DNA of 64,000 nucleotides from Schmidtea nova (lineage: Eukaryota), in contig CM097883.1 in assembly GCA_044892505.1 (NCBI GenBank), positions 198,896,001 through 198,960,000 of the forward strand, written 5' to 3'. The position numbers and the translations under genes are program-made. The notes beneath the pieces are model-generated. The model worked only from the letters and a program-made list of their open reading frames with translations. It was not told where the DNA came from and did no database searches. Below, in pieces: positions 25,301-58,779 of the stretch (its first letter is position 1; the number at the start of each line of letters is the position of its first letter).

Positions 25301-25317
25301 TGACTTTGATTAGAATT

Positions 25318-25935: not shown

Positions 25936-27446
25936 TAAAGAAATTAAAATCCAAAAATCGCTTTTTTAATTCATCAAAATTACAAAATTATTTTCATCCA
26001 TTAATAATCCCAAAGGCACAGATAAAACAGAACAAAAACTGTGACAAAGACCCAATCTCAAAAATTCCTTTTTAAATTCACTTAAAATTCACACTCCGCA
26101 ATTTTTTAATCAAAAAACTCCAAATCTAAAACTTACAAATAACACAGTAAAACAACACTAAAATAAGTCTCAAAGTTCTTTTTAATAAATCCAAAAAAAT
26201 TCATCGATTTATTTCTCAGCGAAATTGAACCACTCACGTCTGTGTGCACACGCTAAGAAATCCTCACAATCTCTAAATAAACGTGGAACAAAATAGCGGT
26301 TACTATTGATCGAATCTATAAAGGTTATACTTTGTCGTTATTTTTATCATTATTGTTGTAATTATCATGATCATTATCTATTACTATTATTGTAAAGGCA
26401 TTGTACTCCCCCCTATTTTTATTTATCATGTAAATAACTTAAATAATAAATAATTTTAAATAATAATAATAATAATAATAATAATAATTTTAAAAATTTT
26501 AAAAAAAAATAAATTTCCTATAGGAATATGACAAAATAGAAAAACGATAATGATTGTGAATTGATGAGGATTTCGAAGTTCAATGAAAATTATGAAAGTG
26601 GCGAAATTACAAAGAATTGATGAACTAAGAATCTACGAAATAAGAATTTATGAACCCAGAATTTAAGAAATAAGAAAATAGAAAAAGACAGTCCTATTAT
26701 CTATTTACTACGTGAGTAGCCTTTATACTTTTTTCAAATATAGTTTATTGGTTGAAAATTGTTATTTGTTTTTTTTTATATTTGAGTTATTTAAATCACT
26801 GTAAACACTACATAAGCAGGCACCCCAATTGTCCCCACAATAAGTTTTGGGAGACTCTTTTGGGCTCTTATCAATTTCTATCAATAAACAACAACAACAA
26901 CAACAAAATAGCATAATAACAAACATTCACCATTGAACCCTCCATCAACATAGTAATACTTCAACAGAATCATTTATGGCATTTGTCATTTGTTGAATTT
27001 TATGTAGAATTTTCGGATTATCTAAAGGTTGATCTGTGTTGATTTCTGTTGACAGTGCTACTTCGAGTAGTTTTTTAAAAAATTTGTTTGTGCTGACTAT
27101 AAATCGTTTTTACTGAAAGTTTCTGCCATATAAGATTTATATAGATTTCGATAAGACCGCCTAACGGATCGCCCCACAATCTCTCACAGCAATCAAGCCC
27201 CGCTCTCAATTATCCAATCTCTATCTAATTATTTTTAAAATATTTTAATAAGTGGGCGCGACCAATGACCTTGACGTTGTTATGGCTCCTATCAACAACT
27301 AAACATACAAAACATTAGTTTGACCATTTTGTAACCCATTACAACGTAACGTTGGTAATGCTACAAATGGGTTGATGTGTTACTGTTCGAGATCGTAAAA
27401 TTTCGTTTTTATAGAATTTTGGAGATTTTTATAGATAATTAATAAA

Positions 27447-27536
27447 TATAGTAATAAATAATTACTATAAATAATAAGTATAGTAATAAATAATTACTAT
27501 AAATAATAAGTATAGTAATAAATAATTACTATAAAT
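27447..27536. repeat. 32-bp tandem repeat x3, each unit palindromic
   Basis: Unit tatagtaat-aaata-attactata-aataataag; 9-bp perfect inverted arms. Confidence 0.9.
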
Positions 27537-27713
27537 GGAAAAGAAATAAATAAAGTAACAAATAATAACTTTAAATAGATAAATAATAATTATAGTAATA
27601 ATAATAATCAAAGGTTTAGCTGCTGAAATACGATAGAATAAGGCTATAATATAGTAAAACATTTTATTATTATTCAAATGTAATTGTTGATTGATTATGT
27701 CTTCTTTTAAATG

Positions 27714-27815
27714 ATTGAGTGATTATTTCTTCCTTTAGATATTGAGTGTTTATTTCTTCTTTTAGATGATTGATTGTTTATTTCTTCTTTTAGATCATTG
27801 AGTGTTTATTTCTTG
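27714..27815. repeat. About 28-bp tandem repeat x4
   Basis: Unit (g)attgagtgtttatttcttcttttagat. Confidence 0.85.
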
Positions 27816-29692
27816 CTTGCTTTATTTTTTGAATCCAGCTAAAAAATGTTTTTTGGCGATTTAAACAATTTTGCTTTTTTTATAAATAAATCAATATTTG
27901 ATTTTAATATAAAAATATAAAGATATAATATTTAATTAAATTACTGTAAATAAAAATATTGTACTTATATATAAATAACAGAGGCACTAAAAAGGGTTAT
28001 AAATAGTAAATAAAAATTACTAAAAAATAGTTAACTAAGAAAATAATAATAGTTAGGTCTTTTTGCGTAGCCGTGTTGGCGGTGTTTTGTAAATTGCTAT
28101 TTAAGCTCATTGAAAATCAGTTGCAGGTAGTAGCGAATTTTTGAGTGAACGAGAAACAAAATTAGAAAGTAACATTTTAGCAGAGATAATTTCCGTAGCA
28201 AATATTTGAAGAGATAAAATTGTTGAAATCGATCATTAGAGATAAAGTTGAAGATATTATTGTGGAACAAATTATCGATTCGAGATTTTATCAGATTAGA
28301 ATCCAGCTATTTGGTAAAATTTAATTTTTGGCCCTAACTTTCGATCACGGAGGAATAGTATTTTATACTATCTTTCTTCTTCAGTTCATACAACCTAAAT
28401 TTTAAGAGGGAACTATTACAGGTAAAAGTAACAACCAATTATGGGTTGTTACTATAGCGTAAATTTCGGGAATCCCACAAATTCTTATTGCCAATCTTTT
28501 AGTCGGAGCTGTTGAGCCATTTAGGTCCAGCTTTCGTTACTTAAATTGAATAACTGATTTTCTTTCTTAGCAACATTTGTAGCAATTGTGCTATTAACAT
28601 AATTTTATTTGTATATTGTTATAGATATTAATAAAACTTAGTTATAAAACATTGTTCCTGTTTTTACACGCAACAAAACATATATTTAATATATCATGGA
28701 TTATCGTTTTAGAGTCCGATAATGGACTAAATATATTAATCGTTAAATCATTTATAAATTGTGTTCTTCGTAACCACTGATACGAACCGAACAGATGTCC
28801 ATAAACATTGATTGTCGAATAATCGAAATTATAATTGACCGAACATCACAATGAGTTAAAGGGCTACCGATAGAAGGTTTAATGCCCATTTGAGCCCCTC
28901 ATTCATCAATTAATCTATAAATATTCAATACGATTTTTAACTAGCAATTTAAATAAATATTCACATCAATAATAATTTATTACTATTAAATCAATCATCA
29001 TGAACATCCAAATGAGAACATCAATTCAAAATTATATCTAAGTACACATATACTATCCACAGACAAATTGAAATTAATTCAAGCGTTTTTGAAAATGTTG
29101 AGATTTTGATGAGTTCCAGCAAGATTTTCCTGCCTTCGAGGTTGTTTGTCTCAAATTCGAGTTAGATGTCGAATAAACCGATTTGCAATGTCTAAAAGTT
29201 AAATATTCCACTCAATCCTAACAATTGGAATAAAAAACAAATCAAATATTCCATTCAATTGGTATGCTTTGCATCACACAAATACGCAAAACGTCGTCCA
29301 TGTATTCGATTCTTTCACAATACCACACTCAAACACATTATCACAACTCAATTCGGGGTCTATTGCCACTGAAAACACTCGATATTTACCGATCTTCGAA
29401 TATTAATTTTCCGAACTTAATCGGCATCTCTTGTTATTATTAATAAGTTTTTGGATTTTATATATCTTAATTCAGTGGAAAACTTTTATTTAGATATGAT
29501 TCTCTTTGTTATAAAACGGAAAATTTGATTTTTTAAATCAAATTTAATTTAAATTAAAAATTAAAAATAAATTTGTACTTAGGCCTTAGCAATGGCAACG
29601 GTTATCCTATATGGATCCTGATAGTTTAATTATCTTATACACCGGCGATTTTTTAAGTTTATGGGTTGGTTATTTTTAAATTTTATAGTAGG

Positions 29693-30522
29693 ATGGGCGT
29701 AGAATAAGGGTTTTAGAATTAAAATATTATACAGTGGGAAATTGAAGTTACAGAATAAATATACATGTAAATCGGATGGCAATGACAATTCAATAATCAA
29801 TGGAAAATATCAACTTCAATGACATTATGATTTTAGTGATTCTATATGATGATAATTTACTGTTGGTCTTATTTGACTTTTGTTTTGTGATGATAATTAT
29901 CTATTGTATATTCATGACAATTATGTGATTAAGCTGTGACTATCTGACAATTTTTATGGGATAATTTTATTTTGTTACTGTTAATAAAATATTGTTGACA
30001 ATTAATTTTTGTAATGACAATTTATAAGCATGAAATTTATCATTTGTGATCTTGCAAACATATATTGACATTTTTTATGGTGATGGACAAAGTTTGATAT
30101 AATTTTGAAAGAATATTTTGTTTTGAAAATATTTTATGTAAATTAATTTTTTAAACTATTTGGAAAATGGATTATATCTTCATTTATATTTTAATATTTT
30201 AATTCAATAAATTATAATAATAATAATAAAATAAATATATAATACAGATTGTTTAAATAAATTAAAAATAAATAAATTACTGTTTGTTTAAGTAAATTAT
30301 ATTTTTGACCTACAAAGGTCAGCAAAATGAAATAATATTCCAAAGTTAAAAAATAATTTTGAAAACAATTCTATTTTCAAAACAATTTCAATCAACTCAA
30401 GAGGCAAAATAACAATCATTATTGACAGATTAAGTGCCTTAAAATTAAGTATATAAACTGACTGATTTTTCAGTCAAATCACCCATAAAATCTTTGCATA
30501 AGAAGAATTTCATAGTTGTTAT
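29693..30522 (+). repeat. Long direct repeat, copy 1 (about 830 bp)
   Basis: Aligns base by base with 34634-35496 from atgggcgtagaata to gaatttcata.ttgttat, high identity. Confidence 0.95.
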
Positions 30523-30539
30523 CATAGTTGTTGAAGAAT

Positions 30540-33027
30540 TGAAGCAATACAGAGGGATAGATTTAATTCTGTGATTGATGCAGTAGAAATTCAGGAAATT
30601 GAAAAAGAAAAAACCAAGTCAAATGATAAAGATGATAATATCTGAATTATGTTAAAAATAGGAGAAAGACTAGTCCAAGTTCGAGTCGTAGTTTTGACAA
30701 CAAATATAGTTTTAATAGTTTGAGAGGCAGATCGAATAATCGAAATAATGATCGTTCGGAATTTAATTATATAAATACTTATGTGGGGAATTATAGAGAT
30801 AATTATAATAATTGAGATAGTAAGGGTCGAGTAAATTTTAATAAAGATGGTCGTTTTGGAAATAATGGGTACAATAAAAATAATCGTTTTAATTATAATC
30901 CAAGCAACAAGGGTAATTATTTCGAATATACTCGAACAAATCGATTTAACGAAAATAGAAATAGTGATAATAGAAACAATTTTAGACGAAGGAGAATGAG
31001 TCCCACTCGACAAAATTTCAATAGAGATAGACGACCGAGTCCGTTTAGTAATGATGGGAGAGATAAAGTTAATTTTCGCGGAGAAATATGATGCTTCAAC
31101 TGTCAGAAATATGGCAAAAGCATGTAAAAATGCACGAGTCGAATCTCTGAATAGAGTTCAATTTAAGAAAGAGCCTGAAATTAAAGAAATAAATAGTATG
31201 GGGGTCAAAGAATCGAATAATGAAATTGAGATGCTGAGAGACGAATTACAAGAATTTAAATCAAAATATGAGAGATTAATCGAAAGGAATAAAATTAATG
31301 TTTCGATAAATGAATTCAAAACTTTTACAAATGAAGTCAAGATAGATAATGAAGAGTTGAGACAGCAAAGAGAAAGAGATGAAGAGTTTTGAGCAGAATT
31401 AGATAGACAAAATATTTTGAGACAGGAATTAGAGGAATCTTTAAGAAATTATCTAGTAGATGATAATGAAGTGTTGAGAATATTAAAAAAAATTCATGTA
31501 GAAAGAATAAATCTGGAGAATCTGAGAAATTTGATGTCATTATTAGTAAGGAAACAAAGAGTAACACAATTATTTGAATTGGAAATTGAAATTAATGAGA
31601 TGTTGAAATGTTATAGCGATTACGTCCAAAAAATGAAAGATTACAGGAGCCACTAGAAATTACATTAGAAACAAATGATAAAGATACACCTAAAATAATT
31701 GTCCATAAACAAGAGGTACATGCGTGTACAAAGGTAAAAAAGATGAAACAAAAAGTCAAAGCAAATTGGTATGCCGACTAGGAATAAAGGATGAGATAAT
31801 ATTATATTTTTCTGGGATGAAGATGCAAAACGAAAATTTTTAATAGATTATGAGATAAACGCTAGTGAAAATTACGTCATAACAGTCTCAATAAAAAGAG
31901 GTTTAGAAGTAGTCAACAAGAAAATTTAAAAATTAGGCCTAGACGAAGAAGATAATACAGAGACCGCAAGAGGAGCTATAGGAGGTATAATGACCGTTAC
32001 GTTGGAGGAAAAGAAACTCCCAAAATCAAAGAATAGTAGCATTTCTGAGAAACTGAAAGAAATTGCAAACAAAACGTCAATGAAAGATAAGGACGTTGAT
32101 GTGCTAATAGAGTTAATAAAAATCATGCATCCTAAATTATATGAACACACAAAATCTCCATCATTTATTGTTAATATATATAAAAAATTGAAGTTATAGA
32201 GTCAGAGATTAAAGAATTAATAAAACAAGAAGCGGATGAAGACGAAGTTTTAGATATCTTATTTACTACTGGAATTGAGGTAATAGAATTATAACAGCAA
32301 TTGCGTATCTCATTTATAGATCATATGATGTTCTGAAGATGAAACCAAAGAAATTGAGTAAAATTGCTAAAAGGATACTTACAAAGTTACAAAATAATGG
32401 GATACCTTGGATAAACGCAAATGGAGGATGGGAAATCTTAAGTGATAAAAATGAATCAGTGGAAATAAATGCAGAGCAACAATGTATTTATGGCAAAGAA
32501 ATTGAAAGAAACCTGAAGAAAATGATAAATAAAACGATGGAAAAATCAGAGAAAAGTGATCATAAATCATTAATGTCTACAATAATAATGAAGATAGCAA
32601 TATTAATAAGTATAATAAGAAGATGTACGAACATGATAGTAAATGAATCTAAGAACCTTCATTATCCTCAACAAAAATCGTTGTATAAGAGATGGCTATT
32701 TTGTACTATAATGTTTAGCACATTATTATTACAAATAATAATTATTTGGATGAGTACGCAAGCCTATAGAAAATACACGTGGAAGAGACAGCGTTATTGT
32801 AGTCATCTCGTCCAATACGTCCCAATGGGATATACATTATCTATCGTGTGTTAAATTAAAATACCCAATCATAAACGGTCTATTATCTTATCCAATAATA
32901 TTTAAAAAATTATTTTACCTAATAGAAACTGATCAAATTTTACTATCTAAATGTCCAATAATTTACAAAAATCACCCATATCTAAATAGATATTATATTG
33001 CAAATAAGGGTAATCTCTATCTTTGCA

Positions 33028-33114
<87 letters not shown>

Positions 33115-34737
33115 TTTTAATTATTTTTTTTTAGAAAAATTAATTCAGAAGAGCCATCAACTTCGAACCCAACCAATCCAAAACCAATCAAATACACACA
33201 AACATACACATGCAAAACATACAAACACCCACTAACATTCTACAAGGCATTGCAAAACAACATAAAAACAGATGGAGAAGAACTCACAATCAGAAAATAC
33301 CCACATCAAGTATGTATACCCAACGAGTTCAAAGTAGACACAGAAGAAAGAGAGATGTACCTAGGTAAGTTCAACATAGCAAAGAGAACAAAACTGAGAG
33401 ACATTATAGGTTATTTTGAGCCAACTCAGAATGTAGATAAGGATACTAAAGAAGACAAAAGAATCCCACATAGGATAGTGATACACGCCACAAAAACAGA
33501 ACTCATATTAAAATTCAAAGAAACAACGTTAGGCAGCATAAGTAAAGCAACAGCGATATTTAAGACAATAAAAGACAGAAAAATGGCGAATGATTTTAAT
33601 AACATCCCGATACAAATTCATAATATACCTTGCGTAATGGCTATAGAAATCCTATATGTTCCAAAAATAAACAATCCTTTTGAAAAGTGAGAAATAATTA
33701 TGGCTGAGATCAGGATGAATGAAGATTTTATAGAAAACAGAACACCATTCACAAAGAAATTATTGACGATCGAGAAAAGAAGAGAGAGAATAGTTTTTAT
33801 GGATGTAAAAAAAAGTAAAAGAGTGTAATCATCAAATAAAACCCATATATATTTATATCAGAAAATATAATGGAGACTGTCTATTCAAAACGAAAATTAC
33901 CCCAAGGACCAAATTACAAATGGACAAAATAGATAAAGATTTAATATTGGGGTATATGGATGAATTCGAAGCACTAATAGAAATAAAAAACATTTATACA
34001 ACAGGATAATTATTGGGTTTGACATTATGGTAAAATGAAGAAGTATATACATTAGTTTAGATGATGTTTTCGGAATAAGAGAAAAGTCAAATACTTTTTA
34101 TACGAAAGCTTTTGCGAAGAATGTCCCGGAAGATAAGATCAAATTATCTAATCTTGCTTTCCAGATCATCAAACTTAAAAGTGATTTACGAAGAAATAAG
34201 AGACTTAATGACATTCTACTCAAACCAGAGCCATTTAGCGTATAGGACACTTGTATGATAGTCAGGATTCTATACATAATAACCGAAAACGACTAGGAAG
34301 ACCACATTGGGCAGCAAATGAAAGAAATAACTAGTAAATCCAGAAATGAGAATATTAATAACCAAATGAATCAAACAAAGGATGACGACGAAGTACAATT
34401 CATCAAATAAGAGCGACCAAATATTGAACTTATGGACACAATCGAAGGTGAACTATGACCAGAGCCAATGATCACCATAGAAGACAAACAAAAGGAAGAA
34501 TACATTACAATAATATATAATGAAAATATTAAAAAAATCACAGTAACAAAAGACGGAGAAGAAATAGAAATATACTTTGTTGAAAAAGGTTATGAGGACA
34601 TAACCTTAACGCCGCATGGAGTAATGTTAGAAAATGGGCGTAGAATAGGGGTTTTAGAATTAAAATATTATACAGTGGGAAATAGAAGGTACAGAATAAA
34701 TATACATGTGAATCGGATGGCAATGACAATTCAATAA
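30540..34737 (+). pseudogene. Train of broken + strand ORFs: R/N/S-rich segment, coiled-coil segment, and unknown ORFs (31990-32199, 32339-32854, 33250-33690, 34468-34737)
   Basis: Strong purine bias and long frames interrupted by single stops or frameshifts; no RT, integrase or protease motif found. Confidence 0.6.
33031..33112. repeat. (AT)n microsatellite
   Basis: Pure AT run seen directly. Confidence 0.98.
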
Positions 34738-35496
34738 TCAATGGAAAATATCAACTTCAATGACATTATGATTTTATAGGATGATAATTTACTGTTGATC
34801 TTATTTGATTTTTGTTTTGTAATGATAATTATATATTGTATAATCATGACAATTGTGTGATTAAACTGTGACTATCTGACAATTTTTTATGGGATAATTT
34901 TATTTTGTTACTGTTAATAAAATATTGTTGACAATTAATTTTTGTAATGACAATTTATAAGCATGAAATTTATCATTTGTGATCTTGCAAACATATATTG
35001 ACATTTTTTATGGTGATGGACAAAATTTGATATAATTTTGAAAGAATATTTTGTTTTGAAAATATTTTATGTAAACTAATTTTTTTAACTATTTGGAAAA
35101 TGTATTATATTTTCATTTATATTTTAATATTNNNNNNNNNNNNNNNNNNNNNNNNNNNNNNNNNNNNNNNNNNNNNNNNNNNNNNNNNNNNNNNNNNNNN
35201 NNNNNNNNNNNNNNNNNNNNNNNNNNNNNNNNNNNNNNNNNNNNNNNNNNNNNNNNNNNNNNNNNGTAAATTATATTTTTGACCTACAAAGGTCAGCAAA
35301 ATGAAATAATATTCCAAAGTTAAAAAATAATTTTGAAAACAATTCTATTTTCAAAACAATTTCAATCAACTCAAGAGGCAAAATAACAATCATTATTGAC
35401 AGATTAAGTGCCTTAAAATTAAGTATATAAACTGACTGATTTTTCAGTCAAATCACCCATAAAATCTTTGCGTAAGAAGAATTTCATAATTGTTAT
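34634..35496 (+). repeat. Long direct repeat, copy 2 (contains an N gap)
   Basis: Second copy of 29693-30522; begins inside ORF 34468-34737. Confidence 0.95.
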
Positions 35497-37250
35497 TGAC
35501 TATTGAAATAATAATTTCGAGCATACAAGATATCGAGCTCAGAAGGCATTCACACATACACACATATATATATACACACACACACATATATATACATTAA
35601 AGGAACAACATCGTGAATCTGTAATATTTTTTTAGGTAATTTGTATTTGTTGTATTTGAATAAAATCTTTTAACCAGTGTTATCTTATTTATTTATATAA
35701 GATACCAAGTTGAGATTCTGGGAGCTTCAACAAATACTATTCCTGGTACATTGGATATCAGATCACTTGAATATACAAGGTCTTACAGATAATCTGTAAC
35801 TTGCAAACATGGCATATGATTTTAAAATTCGCCTTTGCGCACTAAAAGTGTTCAACAGAAACTTTTTGCAAGCGCACCTGACTGCCTTAGCTTTATTATT
35901 TCAATCACTTGAAATATTTTTTTGAAAAACATTTGTCGGATGACTTTTTTCTTTTTAACAAGTAAAGCTTTGTGATACTCAGTGCAAAAATCCCGAGTAT
36001 GTTATATTCATGTTCTTAACGCGTAAACTCGATGCGTTTTTGTTCATTTTAATTTTTAAACGTCTTTTATTTTATATTTTCTGTGTTATGTGATTAATGT
36101 TTTTACTTGGTGTTTTAGCTCATAGAATTTTAAATTTATTTCTTGCGCACTCTCTACATGCTTGTTACCGCTTCATTTAAACAAATCTCAGTTTTTACCC
36201 AATACGATCAATATATTCAATTACACACACATTTACAGATTTTACAATTTTACCATATTTTTCTTTCAATTTATCGTTTATATTTTTGGGAAATGCCGGA
36301 GTGCGCAGTTTTACATAAGTATTTGCTGGATTTCTGACCATGTTTTATTGAGAAGTTTCGTGTGTGTTTTTTCTTTACAGATTTGCTCATTTTGAAATTG
36401 TGAGAAATGATATTTTTTGCTTAAGAATTTTCCTGTGTGTAAGTGTTTTTTTGGATTTTGAATATTACATTTAAAAATTTTATTTGAAAATGTATGAGTG
36501 TTTTTTCTGAGAGTCAAGACTTTAACTGGTTAGTTTTACCGTGTTTATGTTTTTAACTTGCGAATATTATATTTGTGAGAGTTCACCATTTTTAAGTGGG
36601 AATTTGAAGGAAGAGAGTTTTTTACATTGGCGAACATTTTTACATAATAATTTATTGAAATAAATTTTACATGTAAAATTATAAGTTTTTTATAAAAAAA
36701 TTTGAAAACATTAAATTTAATTAAAATTTTAAATATTACAGTCACATACATCAGCGAATACTATAATAGAATTATTACGTAATTGACTATATCATATGTT
36801 GTAATTTAAGAATATTATGTCATCGATGGGTGTAATAACATGTTTCCGACTACAACATATCACAGTGTTGTGTATTAAAATGTTAGGAGTCTTCTTATAA
36901 TTATTGTATAATTTAAACAGTTTAGGGATAATTGACTTGTAAGGTCCTAATTTCTCAATAAATTCACTTCATAATAAATTCAACTATTTTAAAAATCAAT
37001 TTAAACTCTTTTATAATTATAGAAATTTAATTTTATCCCAATGAATATTAGAGACTTAATTATTTTAAGTACATCCACAAGCATCAGGCAAGGTTATGGG
37101 GAAATCTCTAAACAAAAGAAAGATAATTTAATTAGTTTAGTCATTGAGGATGGATTAGCAATTGTCACTTCTGGTGCTCAATTACGAATATTAGGATTTT
37201 CATCCTTTAAAACATTAGAATCAGTTTTACAACAATTTAAATCCATAACT

Positions 37251-45386: not shown

Positions 45387-45502
45387 GTGATCCGGCAGAT
45401 GAAGAGCAGCATCAACAACAACAACAACAACAACATGTTCAAATACCAGCCAAAGATCTGTATGATTTTAACGATCCTCCAGACCACGATTATTTTAGTT
45501 GA
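45387..45502 (+). other. Orphan terminal-exon-like segment encoding GDPADEEQHQQQQQQQHVQIPAKDLYDFNDPPDHDYFS*
   Basis: ttgtag| acceptor, open phase-1 frame, GC-richer than flanks, stop at 45500-02, AATAAA about 110 nt downstream. Parent gene not found. Confidence 0.5.
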
Positions 45503-45704
45503 AGAAGAAAATCAAATGAAAACAAAAAACCCAAAAAAAGATATGATAACGAACAATCAACAATTTATGATAGTATAAAAATTGTTTTAAAAATTTTTCC
45601 GACAATATTGAAATAAAATAAAAATAGATTTATAAAAAAGAAACAGAACAATAGAAAAATAGAAATCAGAAATCCGAATTCAGAAAACAGAAACAGATTG
45701 AGAA

Positions 45705-46135
45705 AAAAACAATGATCTCGTAGAACGAGCTCACCGCACCATGAAATCTTTACTCCACATCCTGTCCACTTCAGGCGGCTGGTCGAAGTCACTACTCTTC
45801 GTTCCTAATGAATGGCACAACACATCGAAGTGGAGTCTCTCCTTCACAGCTGCTATTCGGCACCAACACCAGGATGCCGTCGGAACTTATTGATCTTGAT
45901 ACTGAGTTCTTTTTACAGCAAATCAACGATGTTTGGAACCATTTCCTTGCTCTCGATACAAACCCGTCATTTACTTATTCTTCGCTATACAAGCCATATT
46001 GACCTGCTGCTCTTTCCCCTGCATCTCACACCTGGCTCAAATGCATAGATCACAACAACCTGAAACCACATTATTCATGACCTTTCCGTATACTCTGACT
46101 TTTCAAGAACACAGCCGAGTCGAAAATTTCTTCTA
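45705..46135 (+). pseudogene. Isolated gypsy-type integrase C-terminal fragment
   Basis: NDLVERAHRTMKSLL...GVSPSQLLFG...RMP...LKPHYS*PFRIL (NG.VER.HRT, SP..L.FG and GPF/Y motifs). Confidence 0.8.
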
Positions 46136-46182
46136 GAACAATTTGTTTTAATGCATCAACGAAAACAACACACAAAACCTCC

Positions 46183-49100
46183 TATATATACCGCCATCCA
46201 AAATCTGGAATTCAAAATTTATTAGAAAATTTGCTTGAGAATTTTCGTACAACCAACTGGTAAAATTCTCAATTTAACGGAACTCTGCCAAAACTTTTGT
46301 CAAATTAAAGTTGAGCGAATAAACCTTGTACAGCCTTTTGGAACGCCGGAAATTATAAATAAATCCATGTCTAGAATCCTATTACATTTTTATTGAAATG
46401 CGATACGGTATTCAAAGAAGAAAATGATTATTTTATTATAGTATTATATTTATATTTATTTATATCAATCTACATAACTCTCACAACTACACAAAAGTTC
46501 GGACAAAATAAAAGCTATCAAAATTATACATCCAACTCGTAAATTATCATCGCTCACATGAACAACTTCTTCACTTCATCACGAAAGGAATCGCAAAGTC
46601 ATTTGGAAAATCGAATTTATAAAAAGCTTCCAACTAGCAACTCAAAGTGTAATAGAAATGTCAAGATTGTACTAGAAAATATATATTACATTTGATTTTA
46701 TTCATTGGAACTTCACCTTGATCGGAAAATTATTCATAAAAACTTTATTTTTGATGAAACTTTGAGTATTCGATATTTTCAAATGAATAATCTCGAAAAT
46801 TTTATGTATACTTTATTTGGAAAATTCGTATTCGATGGAAGTTATTTTTTGTAAATATATATTTCTATTATCAAAAATAATATGAAAACCATTAATAATT
46901 CAAATTAAACTTTTATAATATATTTTTTTATAATATAAATTTTTACAAATTTTAGAAATTTAAATTCAAATAAATCTACTTTTGAAAGTTATAAATCCTA
47001 AAATTGATTATTAATTTGCAAAATTAATTTTTTACATATATATTATTTTATAAAATACCCCTCCTAAAAGCACGAAATAACCAATAAACTCATATTTGCA
47101 AATAATTACATCTTTTTCACTCATTAGCATCATATATATCTAATACCAAGCACGAAATCTTTTTCATCTAATAATACATTTAAATTATATCGTTTCACTC
47201 ATTAACATCCCATACACAGCATGATGCATCCAGAGAATCTATACAAGAATCACCTCACTCAACAAATTCCCATAAAAATTCATCATTTCAGTAAATAACA
47301 TCCCATACCTTAACTTATTACATTAAAATTTCTCTCATCTAGTCTAACTCTTAAACACCATTTAGATTGTGATCCATATAGTCATGTAATTCAATTTTTA
47401 CTTAAACCCTTCATAATATAAAAGATAGTATTATTAATCAGCGAGAGGATGTTTATTAAGCCTTTAAACCTATTTTGCCCCAACATAAAATTTAATCAAT
47501 TTATATTTAGTTTACCTTCATAAAAAATATTATTTATTATAATAGCATATTTAGAAATATCATTTAGAAATTTCCAGGTATAAGAGTTGCAATACGAATT
47601 ACGTGTATAAATCATTAAAATAAGAAGTTACCACCAAAAGGGTGACACAAAGCTGAATTTATTTAACTATATTTTCACAACATCAAACCCGAGTTCGAAC
47701 GTTAAGCTTTTCCTTAAATAAAATCCCATAACAGACAGGACCATGAACAGGATAAGAGCCCGAATTACGAGAAAAGTTTTCCGTAAAACATCACCAATCA
47801 ATTTTTTTGCTTCAAAATTGTGCAAGTTAGATAAAAATGAAATTCCCGTCTGGAAATTTGTAAATCCAATAAAGAGAAATTTTCCTCAATGAGAGAAGAT
47901 CCCCAAAGTGTCAACAGTGTCATTCATTGCATCATTTTTATTCAAAATGTCGAATTTATTATCCACCGAAGAAGAGAAATTTGTCACTCCGAAGAAGTGA
48001 CTGAATAGAAGAATTCCGACTATTTGATAAAATTCCTTCATAATCTCTTTGAATTACTATGACCAGATTCAATAAATCGTAATCATCTAAATAAATCGAG
48101 GGAATAAAATAGAATTTAAAAAGACGTACTCTAAATATTGAGACGGGAATATAAATTCCAGAAATTTTAAAATAAAAATTTACGAGAATAATCGATAATA
48201 ATAACCTGGAAATAGGATCAGCCAATAAGATTTGAATAATTAAATACAGTAAGCGTATTCCAAAAATACTATATAGTATTATTAAATAATGTTACTGTAA
48301 GACACGGGGTGGTTTCCACAAAGTCTCTGATATTTTCAATATAATTCAAATGGTCTAGAACCTAAATTCAATAAACTAGCTTCGAAACCGTAAATACCAA
48401 CCGTTGCCTGTTACTAAGGCCTTGCAAATATTTTAAATCTAAAATTATATTTTAGCTTTCATAATTTAAATTAATTTTAGGTTAAAATCAATTTTCCGTT
48501 TTATTACAGGGAGACCAATACCTAATTGAAAATTTCTCACAAAATTAAAATATATAAAACTTAAAAACTTATTAATAATGAAAAGAGATGCCGCTTAGTG
48601 TCGTAGAATTAATTTCGAATATCGGTAAATAGTGAGTGTTTTTCAATGCAATAGACCCAGATTTGAGTTGTGATAATATGTTTGAGTATGCTTTTGTGAA
48701 TAAAATGGATATATGGACGATATCTGCGTATTTGTGTGATATAACGCATACCAATCGAATGGAATACTTAATTTTTAGACAACACAAATCAGTTTATTAG
48801 TTATCTAACTCGAAATTGAGACAGTCAACGTCGACGGCGAGAAAATCTTAATAAGACTTCTCAAAACCTTAACATTTTCCAAATATATGGGAATTAATTT
48901 AATTTTGCCAGTGGCTAGTATATGTATACTTAGAAATAATTCTGGAGTGATGTATCAACCCGCTTGTATTTTGTTGTTTACGATGTTTTATTTGAATAAA
49001 TTAATAAATTCTTATTGATGTAATTTATTTTATTTTAAATTGCTGATTAAAATGAGTATCCGTAGATAAATTATCGAATAAAGGACTCAAATGAGCATCA

Positions 49101-49200
49101 AACCTTCTATCGGTAGCCCTTGAACCCATTGTGATGTTCGGTCAAACGAATTTTCGATTAAACGATCTCATAACTCATCACGAATTAGAACACTAATTAT
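46183..49200 (-). mobile_element. Copy B of the unclassified large element family
   Basis: 48400-49150 is the reverse complement of the copy A leader (28800-29605); 46183-46250 and 47050-47260 resemble copy C 54041-54110 and 55750-56010. Confidence 0.65.
47667..48225 (-). pseudogene. Broken ORF with hydrophobic N-terminus and C-terminal transmembrane-like segment
   Basis: LADPISRLLLSIILVNFYF... (47959-48225), then after a frameshift ...RKTFLVIRALILFMVLSVMGFYLRKS...VKI* ; one internal TGA. Confidence 0.45.
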
Positions 49201-49479
49201 TAAATAACTGTCCTATGTGCAATTTCCCTCCCTGTATTAGGTGCATGGTCGCTGCATCTTCCAACTTCCAAAAGGAGTCAGGCGAGAGACCAATTCCGCC
49301 CTATAGTCGCGAAACCACTAGGACCTAACCTTATTGGTTTTAAGGAGAATATGAGGGGTTACTCGCTAAATGTATGCATAATACAGTCAAAATGTAAAAT
49401 ACCTTTATTACCGAATTCGGATTTACAAATTCGATTAAACAAACAATTGTCAGAGTAAAAAAGGTCTCAATGACGCATA

Positions 49480-49720
49480 TAATTCAACCAAAAAACCTGT
49501 AATATTAAATAAATTATTAAATTCAAAAAACCTGTAATGTTTAATAAATTCATTCAAAAAACTGTAATATTTTATCAATTTATCTAACAAATGATATACT
49601 TATACATATATACGTATATTTATTCAAAAAAAATTCTATTTTTAAAATTTATTCAAAAAATGTTCTAGTTTTCAAATAAACGACAAAAAATTCTATTTTT
49701 CAAAATTTCCCTAATTTTAT
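49480..49720. repeat. Short AT-rich tandem repeats
   Basis: attcaaaaaacctgtaat x3 and attctattttcaaaattt-like x3. Confidence 0.7.
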
Positions 49721-50384
49721 CTATGTTATTTCTCGTTTCAGGCTGGTTTTATCTCACATTCTTAGGTAGTTTGTTTGGTTTATTTTGTAAATATTTGAAT
49801 TGCTTTATTTCAGACATTCACGGGTAATATTTAATTTGTACTTTTATTTTTTGAAATGCTTTATGGATAATTTAATTATCTTTATTTTCATGCATCAGCC
49901 TTTTCGGTGCTCCACGACAATCCACAGGTAATTTACTGTTAATATATTTATTTATTACTGTTATCTTAATCTTTTTTCATTATTTATTTTTCAGATACTC
50001 TTCTGATTATTAGATAATCTATTTTTACTTGCTATATTTATATACCGTATTTTCGCGCATATAACCCGCGGGTTATACAAGTTTTTACAAACAAACGGTC
50101 GCTGTGCGGGGTATTTACAAAAATAATTTTACTCATAAAACTTTTACCTTCAATAGAGGTTCACGCATTTATCCACTGTGTTAAAATTTGTAGTTTCGCT
50201 GTGTGGTTCTCAAATGTAAAACGAATAACTTTATGAACATCTCATTAGAAGTAAATTTACAAATAATACACGTTTAGAAAACAAGTAATACAGATGCGGC
50301 AGAGAACATTTAATATAATCAATTGCCATAAGTAAGCAAGTAAACTAATTCGCCAGTAATGTCCAAACCTATAGTCCACATTTC

Positions 50385-50921
50385 ATGCAATACATCCATT
50401 ATCCTGGCATTATTCTGACTGACTTTGCTGAATCCAGCGTGAAAATCAATAGTTCTTACTACTCCAACATCGTGCAGCAAACAAGGAAGGCACGACGCAA
50501 GAGCAGAGTGTGTGGTCTCTATTTTTATACGATAATGCTTCCATCTACACCAGCAGCGTTTCCATGGCTAAAATTGAGCGTTGCGGGCTCAATTTGCTTC
50601 CTCATCCACCATACAGCCCCGATTTGGCTCCCTCCGATTTTTTCCTGTTTAACCATCTTAAGAAGCATCTGCGGGGCCAGGTGTTTGCCAACAAACATGA
50701 TTTTAGAGCAGCCGTGGAGAGTTTTCTGGGATAAAAGCCTCCAGAATTCTTCAAAAACGCCTTCAAAAACCTCGTTATTCGCTGGGAAAATTGTGTCAGT
50801 GCAGAAGGAAATTATTTTGAGAAATGATGCCTATTTACCATGTTTGTTCTAAATACAAAGATTTGTGTTGATATTTTAAGTGTTTTTATTTTAGTCTCAC
50901 GACTTATTGGGAGCACCACGT
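50385..50921 (+). mobile_element. mariner (DD34D) transposase 3' half and right end
   Basis: YDNAS...HPPYSPDLAPSDFFLF with 34-residue spacing, RWENCVSAEGNYFEK* (stop 50825-27); terminus ttattgggagcaccacg. A separate pogo-like end TA|CCGTATTTTCGCG lies at 50043. Confidence 0.9.
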
Positions 50922-51314
50922 TGGTAATAGATATTATCCCTTTATCAGTTGCGCTTAAAACCAAACGAGCTATCCAGTCAATTACAGTCCTGGCACAGTG
51001 GTCATTTTTAGCAGTTATCGATCCATTTCTTACAGGAATAACGTTGCTATGCGACAGGTAACACATGATTGAATAATGTTTATATGGCGGTTTCTAAGAG
51101 TGAGTAAAAGTCAACCATTAACTCAGCACAAAGCTCATATGCTTATTGGTTCTCTGAATACTATAAATAGTTCTAATATAGTCACCAGGTAGTAACTATG
51201 AGCACATAAGTAATGGCATTTTATGCCAAGTCATGAGGGTGTCTTGGTAATAATAACTGTAGTCATATTAACAGTTAAATTTAACAACCTAAACACCAAT
51301 ACTTATCTTGCCGA

Positions 51315-53307
51315 CTGGGTCAGATTAGCCACAGTATTAATGGTACTTTAGTACGGGGCCTACTCTCAAAATGAACCAAAGAAGGGTCCTACATTTTGAA
51401 AAAATTATTAGATAACTAGGTGGAATTTTTTGTTTTCCAAAGTTATCTCCAAATCTTAAAATTATATTTGGTTCTGAGAAACAAAATAGTATACTATTAA
51501 AGTATTAAATGCAGACTGCGTTTGTGTAAGCATCAATAGAAAGCTATGACTCTTGTTGTTGGAATGAGCTGCTGCAGCTACAGCTGCTTCACACCAACTT
51601 TGTAAATATAACACCCCGCTAGAGCTGCCGGACTCAGACTGCCGTATCTGGACCTTATGGAGTATTCAATTTCATGTATTACTAATACTAAACTAGTTCA
51701 CTGGCTTAAGATGCATTGATATACTGTGATAAAAACATGTGATATCTAGCCTCTTCAGTCAGCTTATAATAATTCGTTAAAGTATTTGCTTTAGAGGCAG
51801 AATGTATGTGCATGATCTTCCAGTTTATTTATATAATCTATGTTGGGAAGAGATTACAAATTAGAATTTCTAAATTTCTAAATTTGAAATAAAAATTATA
51901 TCGTTTTACATTTTTAATTAATTAAATTTTTATAGATTTAAAAATATTTAGTAAAAGTTTCAAAAATGAAAATGAGTAATAAATTTGAATCTGGTGCTCA
52001 GAAACGTTTTAAAAAACGTCTTTTTGAAAAATCTTCGCTAAAACAACGTGGAGCTATCGAACAGTTTGCAACAAAAGTACTACTACTACTACCTGCAACT
52101 CAAATGGATTTATCTGGGAAATCTCAGATAACAGTCTCTGAAAAAGATGCAGCTCTGTGGTCTGTCGATGTCAATTTGGTAAATTTCTGGCTTCGAATGG
52201 GAACTGAACAGTGTCGTAATCGTGACTGTCTCTATGTAAAGTCAGTACATCAATATCCAAATCAAAAAAGGCAACTTAACGACGCTGCTGTTTTTACGGA
52301 ATCTCCAAATGGTGAAAAAAAATAAGCGACACTGACTTCTGTACTTGCATTCAACTGGACGCGTTATCTATTTTGTATGCAAGCTATTTTCTTCTACTAA
52401 TGCTACTTTAGCAAGTCAAGATTTTGATTCCTGGACCCATATTAACAGACTTGGAGAACATGAACGATCAGCAGATCACAGAAGATCTCTTTCAAAGTAT
52501 ACTACTTGCTTGTCGAGTATTCATACACTAGACAAAACCGTTGTTGAAGAATTTGAAAAAGAGAGAAGCTACTGGAGTGAGGTTTTAAGAAGAGTTATAT
52601 CTACTATCAAATTTCTATCTTCATGTGGATTGGCATTTAGAGGTTCAGCAGAAGAGTTTGCTAATTTTGATAATGGAAACTATTCTGGGTTGCTAGAATA
52701 TTTATCAGAATATGATTGTTTTCTTAAGGAGCATATAAAAAAGTGTGGAAATCTTGGATGTGGTAAAACTTCATACTTGTCATCAACCATTTGCGAAGAA
52801 TTTATAAATTTAATGGCTGAAAAAGTTATGCAAACAATTACGGAAGAAGTTCAAAAATGAAAATATTATTGTTTCAGTGTGGATTCCACTCCGTACATTA
52901 CGCATACAAATCAATTAACATTTACGATTTGATACGTTAAAACTGAAGATTGCCAGGTTGTTGAACGATTTTTAAAATTTGTTTTACTGAATGTGAAATT
53001 GTTCACCTGCTAGATTTCCAAGATATTGTTGACAGCTTTTCAACACTAAAGGCTCACCGCAAAGATTTTTAAATAAATTTTCTGTCATTCTTTCAAATTC
53101 ATACAGCGGGAGGTGAGATAAAAAATATTTCCGGTATGTATTATATTAAAAAAATAATTATGTTAAGTATCAATGAACCATAAAAACTATCATTTATTTA
53201 TCCTATTAATATTAACATAAGTGATTATTACATTATCTAAAAATTTGAACAAAGGGGTCTACTTAAAAAAATTAGTACCGGGCCTCCAAATTGATAATCC
53301 GGCCCTA
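51315..53307 (+). mobile_element. Internally deleted hAT element (ZMYM1-like/Tip100-type transposase)
   Basis: TIRs CTGGGTCAGATTA / revcomp TAGGGCCGGATTA; 8-bp TSD cttgccga / cttgtcga; ORFs 51966-52325 and 52345-52860 (LAFRG, DNGNYSGLLEYL, YLSSTICEEFI), then SVDSTP...QLTF...VERFLKF and a jump to the 3' end. Confidence 0.88.
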
Positions 53308-55263
53308 CTTGTCGACATTAACATCCTGTGATGTTAGAAAAAAGGTAGTTTATTAGACTCAGACTTTTATAGTAGTCTTGAACTGTAAAGTTTATCAGTC
53401 ATGTAGGATTCTCAAATTTTCTCTTAGGTTCAATCAGTAGATATGTTGGGCTAAAACCACAAATTGTTTTAATAAAGCGATAACCCCATAGGTAGAGAGC
53501 GCGCAAGATTCAGTTTTAACCCAAATATCCATTAAAAATCGAAACGATTAAGTGAAAAACAACAAAAGGTGAAACGGACTCAAAATACATCAACCAGTAG
53601 AGAACGCGCTAGCTGTGAGTCTGAAAGCCCTTACATTGAAATCTCGAGAAAAATTAAAAGAAGAACGTTTAAAAGTTAGAATAGGCGGAAAACCCATTGA
53701 AAATACCCATAAAGAATGGAATTGTGTTATAAAACCTTCATGCAGAAAAAATTAACAGAATTTTAGCCGAAAATTGTGATTTTAGCAAAATATTTCACAT
53801 TAACAATAAAAAGAATTAATATTGATTGAAATATCGTAAATTAAATTAAATCGAACAAATTTCGATTCAAAAATAAAAATTTTGGATTAAAATAAATTAT
53901 TTGTGTTTTGTAAAAAATTATTACACAAAAATATGGATTTAATTTTCGGAAAATCATTAGAATTAAATTAGAAAGATTAAAAGGAAAATTCTAGAATAAT
54001 TTGTTTTATTACACTACTGAAGGTAACGCAAAATCGATGGTATATATACCGCCATCAAAATGGAATCTATTCAGAATTTGTGAAAAAATTTTGCTGTTAA
54101 GAATTTTGTGAAATTTTTTTCAAGAAAACTTATAAATTTTAATTTATTCGTAAGTCTTATTCTTTTGTTTGCGCGGGGTCATCGAACACCATGCCTGTTC
54201 GATTACCCCGTACCGGTAATATTATTATAATTTTTTATTATTATTGTTATGCTATTTTTATCGAATGAATATTAAAATATTTACTTATAATTTTTTTTAT
54301 CTTTGTTTGTCACAAAATCTCAGAGAGTTAAATTCACAATATTATCTTAAAAAATGATAAAAGTAACTAAATAAAATTTTTTTTTCCATACCCCCTGAAG
54401 CCTGTGTCTGACCTTGTGCCGATCGGGTGGAAGTAGCCTGAGCGGATCGCTGGTTCGATACGTAAATCGATCAGTCCATTTTTCCGAGTTCAGGTGAATA
54501 GCCTAACCATCCATGATCACTTCATCCCAACTGGGGAACAGTGGCTTGGCCCAAGGCAAGGTGTTATATTAATGATATTTAATTTATAATAAAGGTAGTT
54601 TATTTGAATTTATAGTTTCCGACATATTTATCATCTAAAAATTAATACTACATGAAAACGTAAAAACGAATCTCTCCAACAATGTCTTTTCCATTAGGAA
54701 AAATAATTATGCAAAAACATTTTACTCGTCCTTCGCCTTCACCTTCACAATAGTTTTCTCCTCATCCAAGATCCAGAATATTAAAAACCGATATTAAAAA
54801 GTAAATCGTTCGAATTAATTCTCAAATCCGATGGAATAATAATGAAACCGAAATTAACTTTATTCGATGTCGAAAAAATATTTCGTTGAAAAATTTATAA
54901 CTTATTTTTATTTTATTTTTATTTAGCATATAAAAATTTTTTTAGATTAAATGCTTATTTAGATTTCGAAATTTATGGATGAAAATTTTATTATTATGTG
55001 GATTTCGTTTCGATCAAAAAATAAAAATTTACTTTTTATTATATTGAAAAAATTTTTATAATGAAAAATTGTAAACCAAAAATTCTCCGAATATTGTTAT
55101 GATGTAAAAGATTTTGTCATTTTATAAAATTCCTAAGAATTTATAAATCAAAACTTATATTGAAACCCATAAAAATTTTAAATCGAAAATATTATTATTA
55201 TATTGAAAATTTTATCATTTTAAAAAATCCAAAATTTCAAAATTTTATAGGAAAAATTTTTTT

Positions 55264-55300
<37 letters not shown>

Positions 55301-55324
55301 TTAAAATATAAAAATTCGAATATA

Positions 55325-55675
55325 AAAATGTATATTATAAAAACTAGAAATTTTATTATTATATTACTTTCATAAAATTATAAATTAAAAATTTATAAAA
55401 AGTATTATAAAAGTGTATATTATAAAAATTATAAACTTTATTATTATATTCATAAAATTATAAATTTAAATTTATAAAAAGTATTAGAAAAATTTATATT
55501 AGAAAAATTAGAAATTTTATTATTATATTACTTTCATAAAATTATAAATTTAGAAGTTATAAAAAGTATTATAAAAAATTATTAAATGTATATTATAAAA
55601 ATTAGAAATTTTATTATTATATTACTTTCATAAAATTATAAATCTAAAATTTATAAAAAGTATTATAAAAATTAT
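55325..55675. repeat. AT-rich tandem repeat, unit about 75 bp, roughly 4 diverged copies
   Basis: Recurrent agaaattttattattatattactttcataaaattataaat..aa..ttataaaaagtatta. Confidence 0.8.
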
Positions 55676-56192
55676 TATTATTATTTTAATATAAAAATTA
55701 TTATTATTATTTTAATTTTAAAAATATTTTATATAATTTATATATAGTATATTATAAATACCCCCACGATATCTCAAAAATCATAACGCATCCCTATTTG
55801 CAAAAAATTACGTCCATTTCATTCAATAACATTTTCCATACTAATACACAGGCAACATATATTTAAAATACAATATACACACATACACAGTGTCATTTAT
55901 TAGCATTCAATAGTTATATACACACAAGCAAACCATACTAAAAATTCTACACTGTTATGTTAGTCGGCATCATACATCCAGAAAAACCATGCAAAAATTT
56001 CATTCACTTAGGTCTATCATTCAACCATACCATATAAAATTAAATATACCCAGCCAAACTTAGTACCATCAAATAGGCCATTTACATTACAGTTTATTTT
56101 AATTTCCCATTTACAAAAATTTCATAAAAATAATAAAAACTCAAACGAAAAAGAGTAAAGACGGAAAAATATTTATTTATAAAAATTGATGG

Positions 56193-56448
56193 TCATTCAG
56201 TTTGAGGGATAAGAATCTCCGGCAAAAATTTTTCCAGTCCACAGTGCTTGAAGGGCCAGTTCCAACATATTCTCTTCAAGAAATTTTCTAAAATTGTTCA
56301 AAATAAATTATAATTCTGAAATAATCAAAATTTTACTTGGTCGGTAGAGCGGGCAATTTTGCTTCGTAGGAGCTTGAGTTCTAATTGGATTGACCCATGT
56401 TTGGTGGGAGAATTTTCCTCTGACTTCGTAGTTTCCGGGGAGATCCAT
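56193..56448 (-). CDS. Putative spliced 68-aa mini-gene (exons 56448-56337 and 56287-56193)
   Basis: ATG at 56448 just after a ttctatag acceptor; 49-nt GT-AG intron 56336-56288 restores a frame: MDLPGNYEVRGKFSHQTWVNPIRTQAPTKQNCPLYRPKNFLKRICWNWPFKHCGLEKFLPEILIPQTE*. No homolog recognised. Confidence 0.5.
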
Positions 56449-58447
56449 TTCTTGTTGATCTGAACTATAGAAATCGTTAATTAATCAATTTAGTGAAAAA
56501 TTCAGAAAATTACATTTAAAATTAATATAATTTTTAAATTGAGTAAATTTGTCCTTTTGATTAAATTAGCAATTTTAAACAAACGGAAATTTTATTTTTA
56601 TTATTTCTAAACTGGATTAAATTACGGTAATAATTAAAATTTTTCTTAAAATTCAAATGCAGATTAAAAGTTTTCTATAAAAATATAATATTTTATGTAT
56701 TAATTATCATAAAATGCAATATTGGTAAAATATAGGGTTATATTAGTGTTTTTGATGCTCGGAATAATTTATTTGGATGCAATAATGAATTTATAGTTGT
56801 GTAGAGTGTTTATGTTGAATTTCCGATAAATTTTTATTGAAAGCTTATGGATAAATCATTGAAGAAGGGACAAAAATGGGCAATAAACCTTCTATCGGTA
56901 GCCCTTGGACCCAGGAGATATTCGGTCAATCATAGTTTCGTATTGACGACGCTCACTGATTGCGAATACCCACCCACTTGTTACAGTACCAACGTTACAT
57001 AGTGACGGGTAACAAGATGGTAGTTTAAATGTTTTATGTGTTGAGTTGTTGATGAGAGCCATAGAAACGTCAAGGTCATATTGACGATCAACAACCCACC
57101 AGATACAATACCAACTTCACCTAGTGAAAGGTAACTTACAGCTAAACTCAATTTATGCGGTTTGAGACAATTAATCTTTTCATTGAAATGCAAATTTCTT
57201 TTAAATTTCTGTTTAAAAACAATTTCTTTAATATTTATTAAACCATATTCACTTTGATTTGAAAAATTGTCATTTTATTAAATATTTGCCTTGTTTTAAA
57301 TCGATATTTATTGTTCAAATTTGACATTTTTGAAATAGAGTTTTTTTGTATTATAAAATAGTTTCTAATTTACTTCTACATTGAATGCCTAATTCAATTC
57401 TCTCTTTGGGTTCGATATTATTGATAATCATTTTTATTATTAATTTAATAAATAAATTTAGATCTTTTTAATTGGAGAAATGCCAATATGAATTCTCCTC
57501 AGATTAAGCTAATATCCAATAGATATTCAAAAAATATTTATTTAGATGAGAAAAAAGAGGTAATAATAAATAAAATATTAAATTATTACAATTTAGCTGC
57601 ATAATTATTACATAAAATATTATTATTAAATAGAAAAAATTTGATATAATATTAGTTTTATCACGAAAAAGAACTTTATAATATTAAAATGAGAAATTTG
57701 GTTTATTTACGTTGATTGTTTATAACATTTTTCAAATCGGTTATTATTAATTTGTTATAACAGTAGTTAGTAAGTTTTATTATCAATATATTGAACGCTA
57801 TTTTGAAACCCATTGAAAGCAAATAAACTAGAATTACCCCTGTTTTTTATTTTTTCATAAATTCACATGATACATCTGATTTCTTGCATACTAATTTGTA
57901 CTGTAATAAAAAAGGAAAATTAACGCATTTTTTACACGAAAACAATTAATGCATTAATATTTTAAATTCTAAGCCATAATTTCCCTTTATATTATATAGA
58001 AAATTAAAAATTATAATACAATTATTTTTATAATAAGTTTTAGAAAAGCAATGTAATAATTGCTGTCATTCAGTCTGTGTCTTAGGTTAAATTCATGAGT
58101 TGTGCTGCAGGATTTTATATAGATTGGTGATATGGTTTTTGTTTAGTAGAAAGTGTATTTTTCATTTTGCATCAAATATATTGTTGTAATGGTTTCAATT
58201 AAATAATTATATAATATTTTCACTTGTTAGACGAAATAAATATCATTATTATTACTTATTATTACTTATCTATTTAGTTATTTGTGAGTTATTATTATTA
58301 ATTATTTGTTAGTTATTTGTGATGTGTGCTCGTTAATGTGTATTGCTGAGTGTTTAAGGATTTGAAAGAGCCCGAAAGAGTCTCCAATTGGTGGAGGGAC
58401 AGTCGGGGTGAATGCGTATGTATATGGGTATGATTACTGTAACTATA

Positions 58448-58451: not shown

Positions 58452-58503
<52 letters not shown>
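58448..58503. repeat. (AT)n microsatellite
   Basis: Pure AT run seen directly. Confidence 0.95.
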
Positions 58504-58507
<4 letters not shown>

Positions 58508-58779
58508 TTATATTTATATAAATATTTAAAATTAACAATACAATTTTTACATGAACTTTATTTAATGCAATAAAAAAAACACTACTCACGAAAAGGGATA
58601 ATATAATTTTCGACTGTCTCTGATTTATTCTTAATTTTTTTACGTTTTCTGTTAGCTTCTGTTCCTTTAGATTTTTTTCCGAAGATAATTTAATTTTCAA
58701 CTTACTTTTTGATTTATTCTAGCTTTATAAATGTTTACTTTTAGCTTCTGTTCCTTTAGATTTATTTCGGAATATGGTA

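Follow-up and report, generated by a model that had tools for sequence, protein, structure and literature searches.

The question raised by this locus is whether three large, diverged repeat copies constitute a new family of elements with exchangeable genes, or whether they are remains of an element type that is already known. The copies lie in a window of 64,000 nucleotides (nt) from Schmidtea nova (NCBI GenBank assembly GCA_044892505.1, contig CM097883.1, positions 198,896,001 to 198,960,000 of the forward strand), whose own numbering is used below; they are termed A (plus strand), B and C (both minus strand). An earlier note on this DNA had proposed an unclassified family with a shared scaffold and different cargo in each copy. 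On the present evidence, A, B and C are probably decayed remains of Burro-like giant Ty3/Gypsy elements: B, C and the first 3–4 kilobases (kb) of A likely stem from long terminal repeats (LTRs) of diverged subfamilies, and the coding train of A probably represents what large deletions left of the gag-side polyprotein of the element itself. All copies in the window are dead, their frames being interrupted by many stops and shifts.

A self-comparison of the window, which the earlier note had named as a check, confirmed the scaffold blocks, with identities of 69–79% between A, B and C, and additionally revealed a direct repeat in A that had not been listed before. Significance of blocks was judged against the best score of 100 local shuffles, and the length of reading frames against 300 composition-matched simulations; a Pfam scan covered 17 proteins, four of them from A and B. 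The leader common to A and B (28815–29577, plus strand, in A; 49165–48440, minus strand, in B) could be aligned at 73–79% identity, as had been claimed, and is closed by an AG followed by the motif gccttag...ggcaacggtt (29581–29582 in A, 48421 in B). A GT...AG span of 101 nt is indeed present in B (48521–48421), but its donor GT reads AT at the aligned position in A; thus, this intron candidate is not common to A and B. The three A/C blocks, which are colinear, held as well: 26809–26925 vs. 58422–58307 (score 76, best shuffle 40.5, n = 100), 27265–27372 vs. 57079–56972 (79% identity, expectation value (E) 2e-22) and 28803–29012 vs. 56961–56750 (70%, E 1e-24). The third block is also present in B, and C is without the leader past its first 200 base pairs (bp). 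As for the two B/C blocks reported near the 3' ends, one was solid (46245–46131 vs. 54107–53989, minus strand; score 95, best shuffle 69.5) and the second was not, since 15 of 100 shuffles equalled its score of 75; an alternative candidate for it had a GC content of 16%. A further match, between 36130–36202 and 53519–53446, was rejected, as it was equalled by 7 of 100 shuffles.

Within block 3, a 22-mer is invariant in all three copies (28859–28880, plus strand, in A; 49121–49100 in B and 56906–56885 in C, minus strand). It is a likely candidate for a promoter or enhancer site. The 22-mer had no match in metagenome or viral contigs, and scans for related loci returned nothing. Its interpretation as a tRNA primer-binding site was rejected, since by eye it did not fit the tRNA pattern. 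When block 3 was folded in its three copies, two-sided changes were seen in only 1 of 16 and 1 of 18 pairs; therefore, no RNA structure is claimed for it.

B (46131–49165) consists of block 3 with the leader, a variable middle and a TATA block (TATA at 46190, ATTAAA at 46152). C (53989–58430) begins at a (TA)n tract (58454–58525) and carries blocks 1–3, a two-exon-like, GC-rich stretch (56466–56195, minus strand), an AT array (55187–55758) and a 3' TATA block (TATA at 54048, TCAGT at 54020, AATAAA at 54010; minus strand). In both copies the spacing from the TATA to the poly(A)-type hexamer is 38 nt and from the TATA to TTCTAGAA 52 nt; the TCAGT initiator of C stands 28 nt past the start of the TATA, with a T-rich tract beyond, and the similarity of B and C stops about 60 nt past the TATA in both. 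An identical 16-mer around the TATA occurs at exactly two sites of the window, namely in B and C, the sole other match having three mismatches. As a sequence pattern, TATA, putative start site and poly(A) signal are thus found in U3-R order and with the same spacing in B and C; because this is the layout of a U3/R border, both are likely relics of diverged long LTRs. B is likely a truncated one, whose 3' end abuts an integrase-like fragment of the opposite strand; for C, an almost complete solo LTR measuring at least 4.5 kb is likely. The 22-mer precedes the TATA by 2931 bp in B and by 2858 bp in C; since an inner weak block lies at differing distances in the two copies, this equal length may be partly due to chance. 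The integrase-like fragment next to B (45700–46120, plus strand) was recognized by eye and had no Pfam match. About 130 nt upstream of the TATA of C, a strong GC-rich hairpin was noticed (54174–54210, minus strand; −23.9 kcal/mol for a 66-nt stretch).

B and C could also be viewed as copies of a non-autonomous scaffold with a conserved leader, downstream of which spliced cargo genes are expressed and can be exchanged, or, in LTR terms, as carriers of lineage-specific accessory mini-genes in the U3. This appears quite improbable. The leader and its AG-bearing end motif are conserved in A and B, which speaks for such a scaffold; the middle of B has relatives with about 80–85% likeness among the DNA contigs described below; and in C two pieces of 130 and 93 nt (45% and 39% GC) surround a GT-AG span of 49 nt with only 14% GC (56336/56288), which by its sequence would be a candidate for a small two-exon gene. 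However, the "membrane" frame that had been reported for B comprises 110 codons, a length reached in 46 of 300 simulations, and the longest frames of C, for which a "spliced mini-gene" had been reported, have 52 and 58 codons, which were reached in 294 and 287 of 300 simulations, respectively; all of these must be regarded as chance-length, and the small gene around the GT-AG span of C stays a candidate. No meaningful Pfam match was obtained with frames of B and C, the donor in B is not conserved in A, and what had been taken as cargo of A resembles the element's own polyprotein.

In the reading preferred here, a decayed Burro-like element, the layout of A is as follows. Its non-coding 5' part, X (26800–29692, plus strand), contains blocks 1–3, minisatellites (27435–27814) and the leader; its longest frame of 85 codons was reached in 194 of 300 simulations, and it is likely a portion of a long LTR. 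There follow, all on the plus strand, the left direct repeat R (29693–30522, with a TATA-like box at 30450), the coding train (30523–34633) and the right direct repeat R' (34634–35496, with an assembly gap of Ns near 35132–35265). R and R', of about 830 bp, flank the whole train of A and are 95–99% identical; 19 substitutions were counted in 738 columns (17/507 and 2/231), in addition to a 9-nt indel. The right end of R meets mid-gag sequence at a 10-nt near-repeat, which would fit template switching or microhomology repair, and the last reading frame of A extends about 33 codons into R'. An AC/AT microsatellite (35550–35597) is the likely 3' end of A. Burro elements may end with AC/AT microsatellite caps and have LTRs of about 5 kb. 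No primer-binding site was found after R, and two short duplications at the ends of R or A were at chance level.

The frames of A had been described as unrelated cargo. They form instead one decayed, gag-side-like train on the plus strand, interrupted by many stops and frameshifts. Its longest stop-free frame has 191 codons (reached in 6 of 300 simulations) and its longest frame starting with ATG 171 codons, which none of 300 simulations reached; together with a relative of 33% identity (E 5e-43, see below), the latter argues that the train is derived from coding sequence. It starts mid-frame with the decayed C-terminal part of a gag-like protein, rich in R, N and G (30523–31180), which includes a broken CCHC-type knuckle (about 31092–31133). 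A charged, Smc-like coiled coil follows (31150–32190), broken by stops and changes of frame; a homologue search with its frame found none. The next part is a Bcl-2-like domain (32190–32854, frameshift near 32280) with a C-terminal hydrophobic helix and a motif which we take to be BH2-like. All 54 PDB matches of this frame at E ≤ 10 were to Bcl-xL and lay over this motif (best E 0.27); they rest on the same short stretch as the Pfam match given below, and both are weak. A homologue search with the Bcl-2-like frame, restricted to longer proteins, gave no new relatives, and Atlas gave no usable match. Taken together, the protein searches reached short, unnamed relatives only. Behind an (AT)41 microsatellite (33031–33112) lies a domain which is conserved in two proteins, P0005 and P0006 (33121–33690); the frame 33121–33687 had three relatives among 1.84 billion proteins. 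A ubiquitin-like fold would be a guess for this domain, whose structure model was uninformative (predicted local distance difference test, pLDDT, 36). In P0006, a piece resembling the frame 33214–33393 of A is joined to at least four zinc knuckles (Pfam E 3e-19); this protein is either a fused gene model or reflects another domain order in a related element.

The last part of the train (33556–34389, core about 33790–34290) is a DEDDh exonuclease-like domain of the ISG20/REX4 type, with several stops. When the frame was read with X at its 10 stops, it aligned with the protein P0004, one of those three relatives, at 33% identity over 290 columns (E 5e-43). Residues 60–260 of P0004 were assigned to RNase_T in 30 of 30 feature matches and to an ISG20 cluster with a template modelling (TM) score of 0.74; a comparison of P0004 with PDB entry 1wlj (ISG20) gave E 0.004. 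Direct searches with the copy in the window yielded no exonuclease match, and the assignment is therefore transitive via P0004. As judged by eye against the catalytic motif, apparently only the first of the catalytic residues, an aspartate, is kept in P0004 and in the window copy, so that the domain would likely be inactive in catalysis even in its intact relative. The tail of P0004 is an unrelated piece of acetyl-CoA carboxylase, and P0004 is probably a fused gene model; a search for homologues of its residues 1–260 returned only P0004 itself.

More evidence on R and R' came from four sets of DNA contigs, all from one study with at most three samples, one of which is possibly the source of the window itself. 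Contigs were aligned at 80% likeness to positions 33150–53000 only. In the run X1, summed contig depth, which does not equal copy number and can be inflated by AT-rich sequence, was 35–46 for pieces showing no difference (single-copy), 422–2,825 for the middle of B, 5,043 for its leader, 10,346–11,418 for the interior of A, 64,221 for the bin with the 22-mer and 179,134 for the R' bin; across the four runs, the R' bin was 7–16 times deeper than the interior of A. By this pattern, every part is repetitive, R resembles a terminal repeat in its behaviour and the 22-mer is the mark of a large and diverse family; for R', such depths are typical of a terminal repeat which also exists as solo copies. 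Per run, 51–119 contigs had loose ends at 49089, adjoining the 22-mer of B, and those loose ends which were listed resemble C. Just past the microsatellite of A, the stretch 35600–36459 was covered by contigs to a very great depth in each of the four runs, which suggests a separate, very abundant small repeat.

The same depths bear on the view that A is a composite, in which R, train and R' (29693–35496) would be a non-autonomous, Burro-like derivative with short LTRs, nested in another, non-coding repeat family to which X, B and C would belong. The near-identity of R and R', which bracket the train, speaks for this view, and so does the depth of R' relative to the interior together with the shallow leader of B; R moreover has its own TATA-like box, and A is without the TATA block of B and C. 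Against it, neither a target duplication nor matching ends were found; the train begins mid-gag without a primer-binding site, and R' is entered by the last of its frames. Also, X does not visibly resume past R': between 35600–36900 and B or the 3' flank of C no alignment beats the shuffles, except that a lone AT-rich match to C at 56.7 kb exceeds them narrowly. This composite, the main rival to the reading preferred here, is considered rather unlikely.

Another possibility would be that the doubled R and the joints of A arose when a short-read assembly with gaps wrongly stitched repeat copies together. There are 652 Ns in the window, with one gap inside R', and the joint at 34634 was bridged by none of the contigs listed. 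On the other hand, R and R' differ by their substitutions and the indel, the 9-nt indel occurs in its left-copy form among contigs from each of the four runs (loose ends at 34776), and an assembly error leaves the A/B/C blocks and the domain content without explanation. Such an error is thus very improbable.

Returning to the decayed Burro-like element, its history could be pictured as follows. Transcription of the autonomous element would begin at the TATA, which is located close to the 3' end of an LTR of several kilobases, and would use the poly(A) signal just behind, as the B/C spacing suggests. The transcript would yield a long polyprotein of Gag, knuckle, coiled coil, Bcl-2-like and exonuclease-like parts, in the order seen in A, and presumably continuing into envelope (env) and pol; the element would be copied via reverse transcription. 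Recombination between LTRs would reduce elements to solo LTRs, of which C would be an example, and some, like B, could be clipped by insertions at a later time. If only protein-binding or processing sites stay conserved, this would account for common blocks amid AT-rich DNA which cannot be aligned. In A, recombination or template switching may have removed the gag start and the part from the exonuclease region to the 3' end, leaving the 830-bp piece twice; A would then be part of a 5' LTR which, after two large losses, came to adjoin the gag-side polyprotein and the 3' piece in its second copy. The blocks, the repeats, the spacing and the decayed train with its relative are observed; we infer the LTR identity, the link to pol and the route of the rearrangement.

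Several observations weigh against this picture. The bin with the leader of B (5,043) was far below the R' bin, although the leader of A is 81–84% identical to that of B over about 170 bp, so that X and R may not be parts of one LTR. The TATA block of B and C is missing from A, and neither for R nor for A as a whole were TG...CA ends with a target duplication, a primer-binding site or a clear polypurine tract found. The knuckle was seen by eye only, the gag-like part had no Pfam match, and the N-terminus of gag is absent. For the Bcl-2-like domain, the frame 32279–32851 matched Pfam PF00452 weakly (E 0.006, 17.5 bits vs. a cut-off of 31.4), and the structure model of this frame (pLDDT 50) gave no fold match. 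Env, ankyrin, BIR, MATH, protease, reverse transcriptase and integrase are absent from A, and the exonuclease-like domain follows Bcl-2 where Burro has env, according to PMC6431247. A frame for a reverse transcriptase or transposase was not found within A, B or C, in agreement with the earlier note, nor was env or a Gypsy protease, reverse transcriptase, RNase H or integrase; the pol pieces at 37.4–39.7 kb and 41–44 kb show no link to them. A Burro element would exceed 30 kb and have paired long LTRs, and A has about 9 kb with 830-bp repeats, while neither B nor C has a partner. Since pol, env, size and termini were examined with this outcome, the copies are called Burro-like and are not filed as members.

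The earlier note had also considered Penelope-like or Terminon-like elements, for which R would be a pseudo-LTR and the coiled-coil, membrane and exonuclease frames accessory genes. Known Terminons do carry coiled-coil, membrane and DEDDy exonuclease frames and occur in tandem arrays, as described in PMC6431247, and A has its 3' piece doubled upstream. However, no Rfam match at E ≤ 1 was found over 24000–60500, the hammerhead pattern occurs at one site in the window and at none in A, B or C, and a telomeric repeat, searched for as the TTAGGG type only, was not found; with neither hammerhead nor telomeric repeat, this reading fails. Furthermore, the exonuclease-like domain is of the ISG20/REX4 and not of the DEDDy type, the knuckle and the Bcl-2-like domain point to Burro, and no Athena/Penelope reverse transcriptase or GIY-YIG domain was seen nearby, the matches to reverse transcriptase in the window being Gypsy-like pieces. 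An origin from such elements is therefore extremely improbable. From the inference of the earlier note, the giant planarian LTR-type remnant is the part that fits best; the scaffold which shuffles cargo is not supported in view of the chance frames, the unconserved donor and the polyprotein-like character of the train in A, and Penelope and Terminons failed as well.

The surroundings are dense with transposon debris, as shown by profile and reading-frame scans of the whole window (about 28% GC). Pfam detected Gypsy reverse transcriptase and integrase pieces at 37.4–39.7 kb and 41–44 kb; in addition, there are DDE transposases at 1.0 kb and 58.9 kb and the end of a DEAD-box helicase at 20.6–21.5 kb. 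No tRNA genes were found in the window, PHROGs gave nothing more than weak matches to nameless families, and for each region, the 25 longest of the listed inverted repeats were microsatellite or AT-rich matches, with no terminal repeats among them. The minus-strand Gypsy piece from reverse transcriptase to integrase at 37253–39904 is situated between 161-bp direct repeats (93%) which resemble a purine tract and the start of an LTR; its layout is like that of A, with an upstream copy of the 3' end fused to the mid-interior. In the region of the DEAD-box helicase, a tandem array (14674–15732) comprises several units of a short exon-like piece with AT-rich, intron-like DNA. Just upstream of A and oriented away from it (25098–25965, minus strand), 83 residues from the interior of APPBP1/NAE1, the regulatory subunit of the NEDD8-activating enzyme, were recognized (PDB E 7e-14), preceded without an intron by about 215 codons of a broken frame; this piece looks like a captured fragment of a host gene. 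A possible fourth fragment of the scaffold lies at 24937–25104 (plus strand), where a 21-nt motif at 25078, directly abutting the NAE1-like piece, matches C at 57101 (score 48.5, best of 100 shuffles 46).

For a planarian-type genome, pieces of dead giant LTR elements are mostly ordinary. The 22-mer and the TATA block could, however, serve as anchors by which long LTRs of this genome are located and assigned to classes even when very diverged. In a literature search, no paper describing an ISG20-like domain for elements of planarians turned up, with the defining Burro genome paper and its supplements being beyond its reach; the exonuclease or the LTR structure may already be annotated there. 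As a speculation, which must be called improbable, a Burro-like lineage could have captured a catalytically dead, RNA-binding ISG20-like domain that forms a counter-defence pair with Bcl-2, and its multi-kilobase LTRs could hold subfamily-specific spliced mini-genes behind the conserved leader, i.e., an exchangeable gene cassette. If an ISG20/REX4-type pseudo-exonuclease indeed stands beside a Bcl-2-like domain, this would add a look-alike of host antiviral proteins to the apoptosis and ubiquitin toolkit of Burro.

Among known systems, solo LTRs and non-autonomous LTR elements with internal deletions are units without coding capacity in which promoter and poly(A) blocks are conserved, and their direct repeats are deeper than the interior. 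A, B and C share with them the promoter and poly(A) blocks and a direct repeat that is deeper than the interior, but differ in that clean termini, a primer-binding site and a target duplication were not found. The LTR elements Juno and Vesta of bdelloid rotifers, as well as Terminons, carry separate exonuclease frames of the DEDDy/RNase D-like type with catalytic residues described as intact (PMC5408684). With these, A has in common a DEDD-superfamily exonuclease domain on a retroelement; in contrast to them, its domain is RNase_T/ISG20-like, is situated inside the gag-side train and likely lacks most of the catalytic residues. Burro is larger than 30 kb and has one frame with Gag, two to three knuckles, Smc, MATH, SUMO-like, Bcl-2, env, ankyrin, BIR and pol; the domain list in the accessible text of PMC6431247 names no exonuclease, and in the accessible parts of PMC11410931, PMC13238120 and PMC8532177 Burro is merely mentioned or used as a marker. 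Unlike Burro, A has 9 kb and is without the gag start, MATH, env, ankyrin, BIR, protease, dUTPase, reverse transcriptase, RNase H and integrase. Compared by description only, A is nevertheless like Burro/GYPSM1 in the order of its train, where a putative, broken CCHC-knuckle region precedes a Smc-like coiled coil, and this in turn a weakly matched Bcl-2-like domain, as given for ORF1 of Burro (PMC6431247). It also has tandem repeats in its non-coding parts, as Burro does, and it is decayed in the manner of the Burro fragments which Dugesia japonica still holds (PMC6431247).

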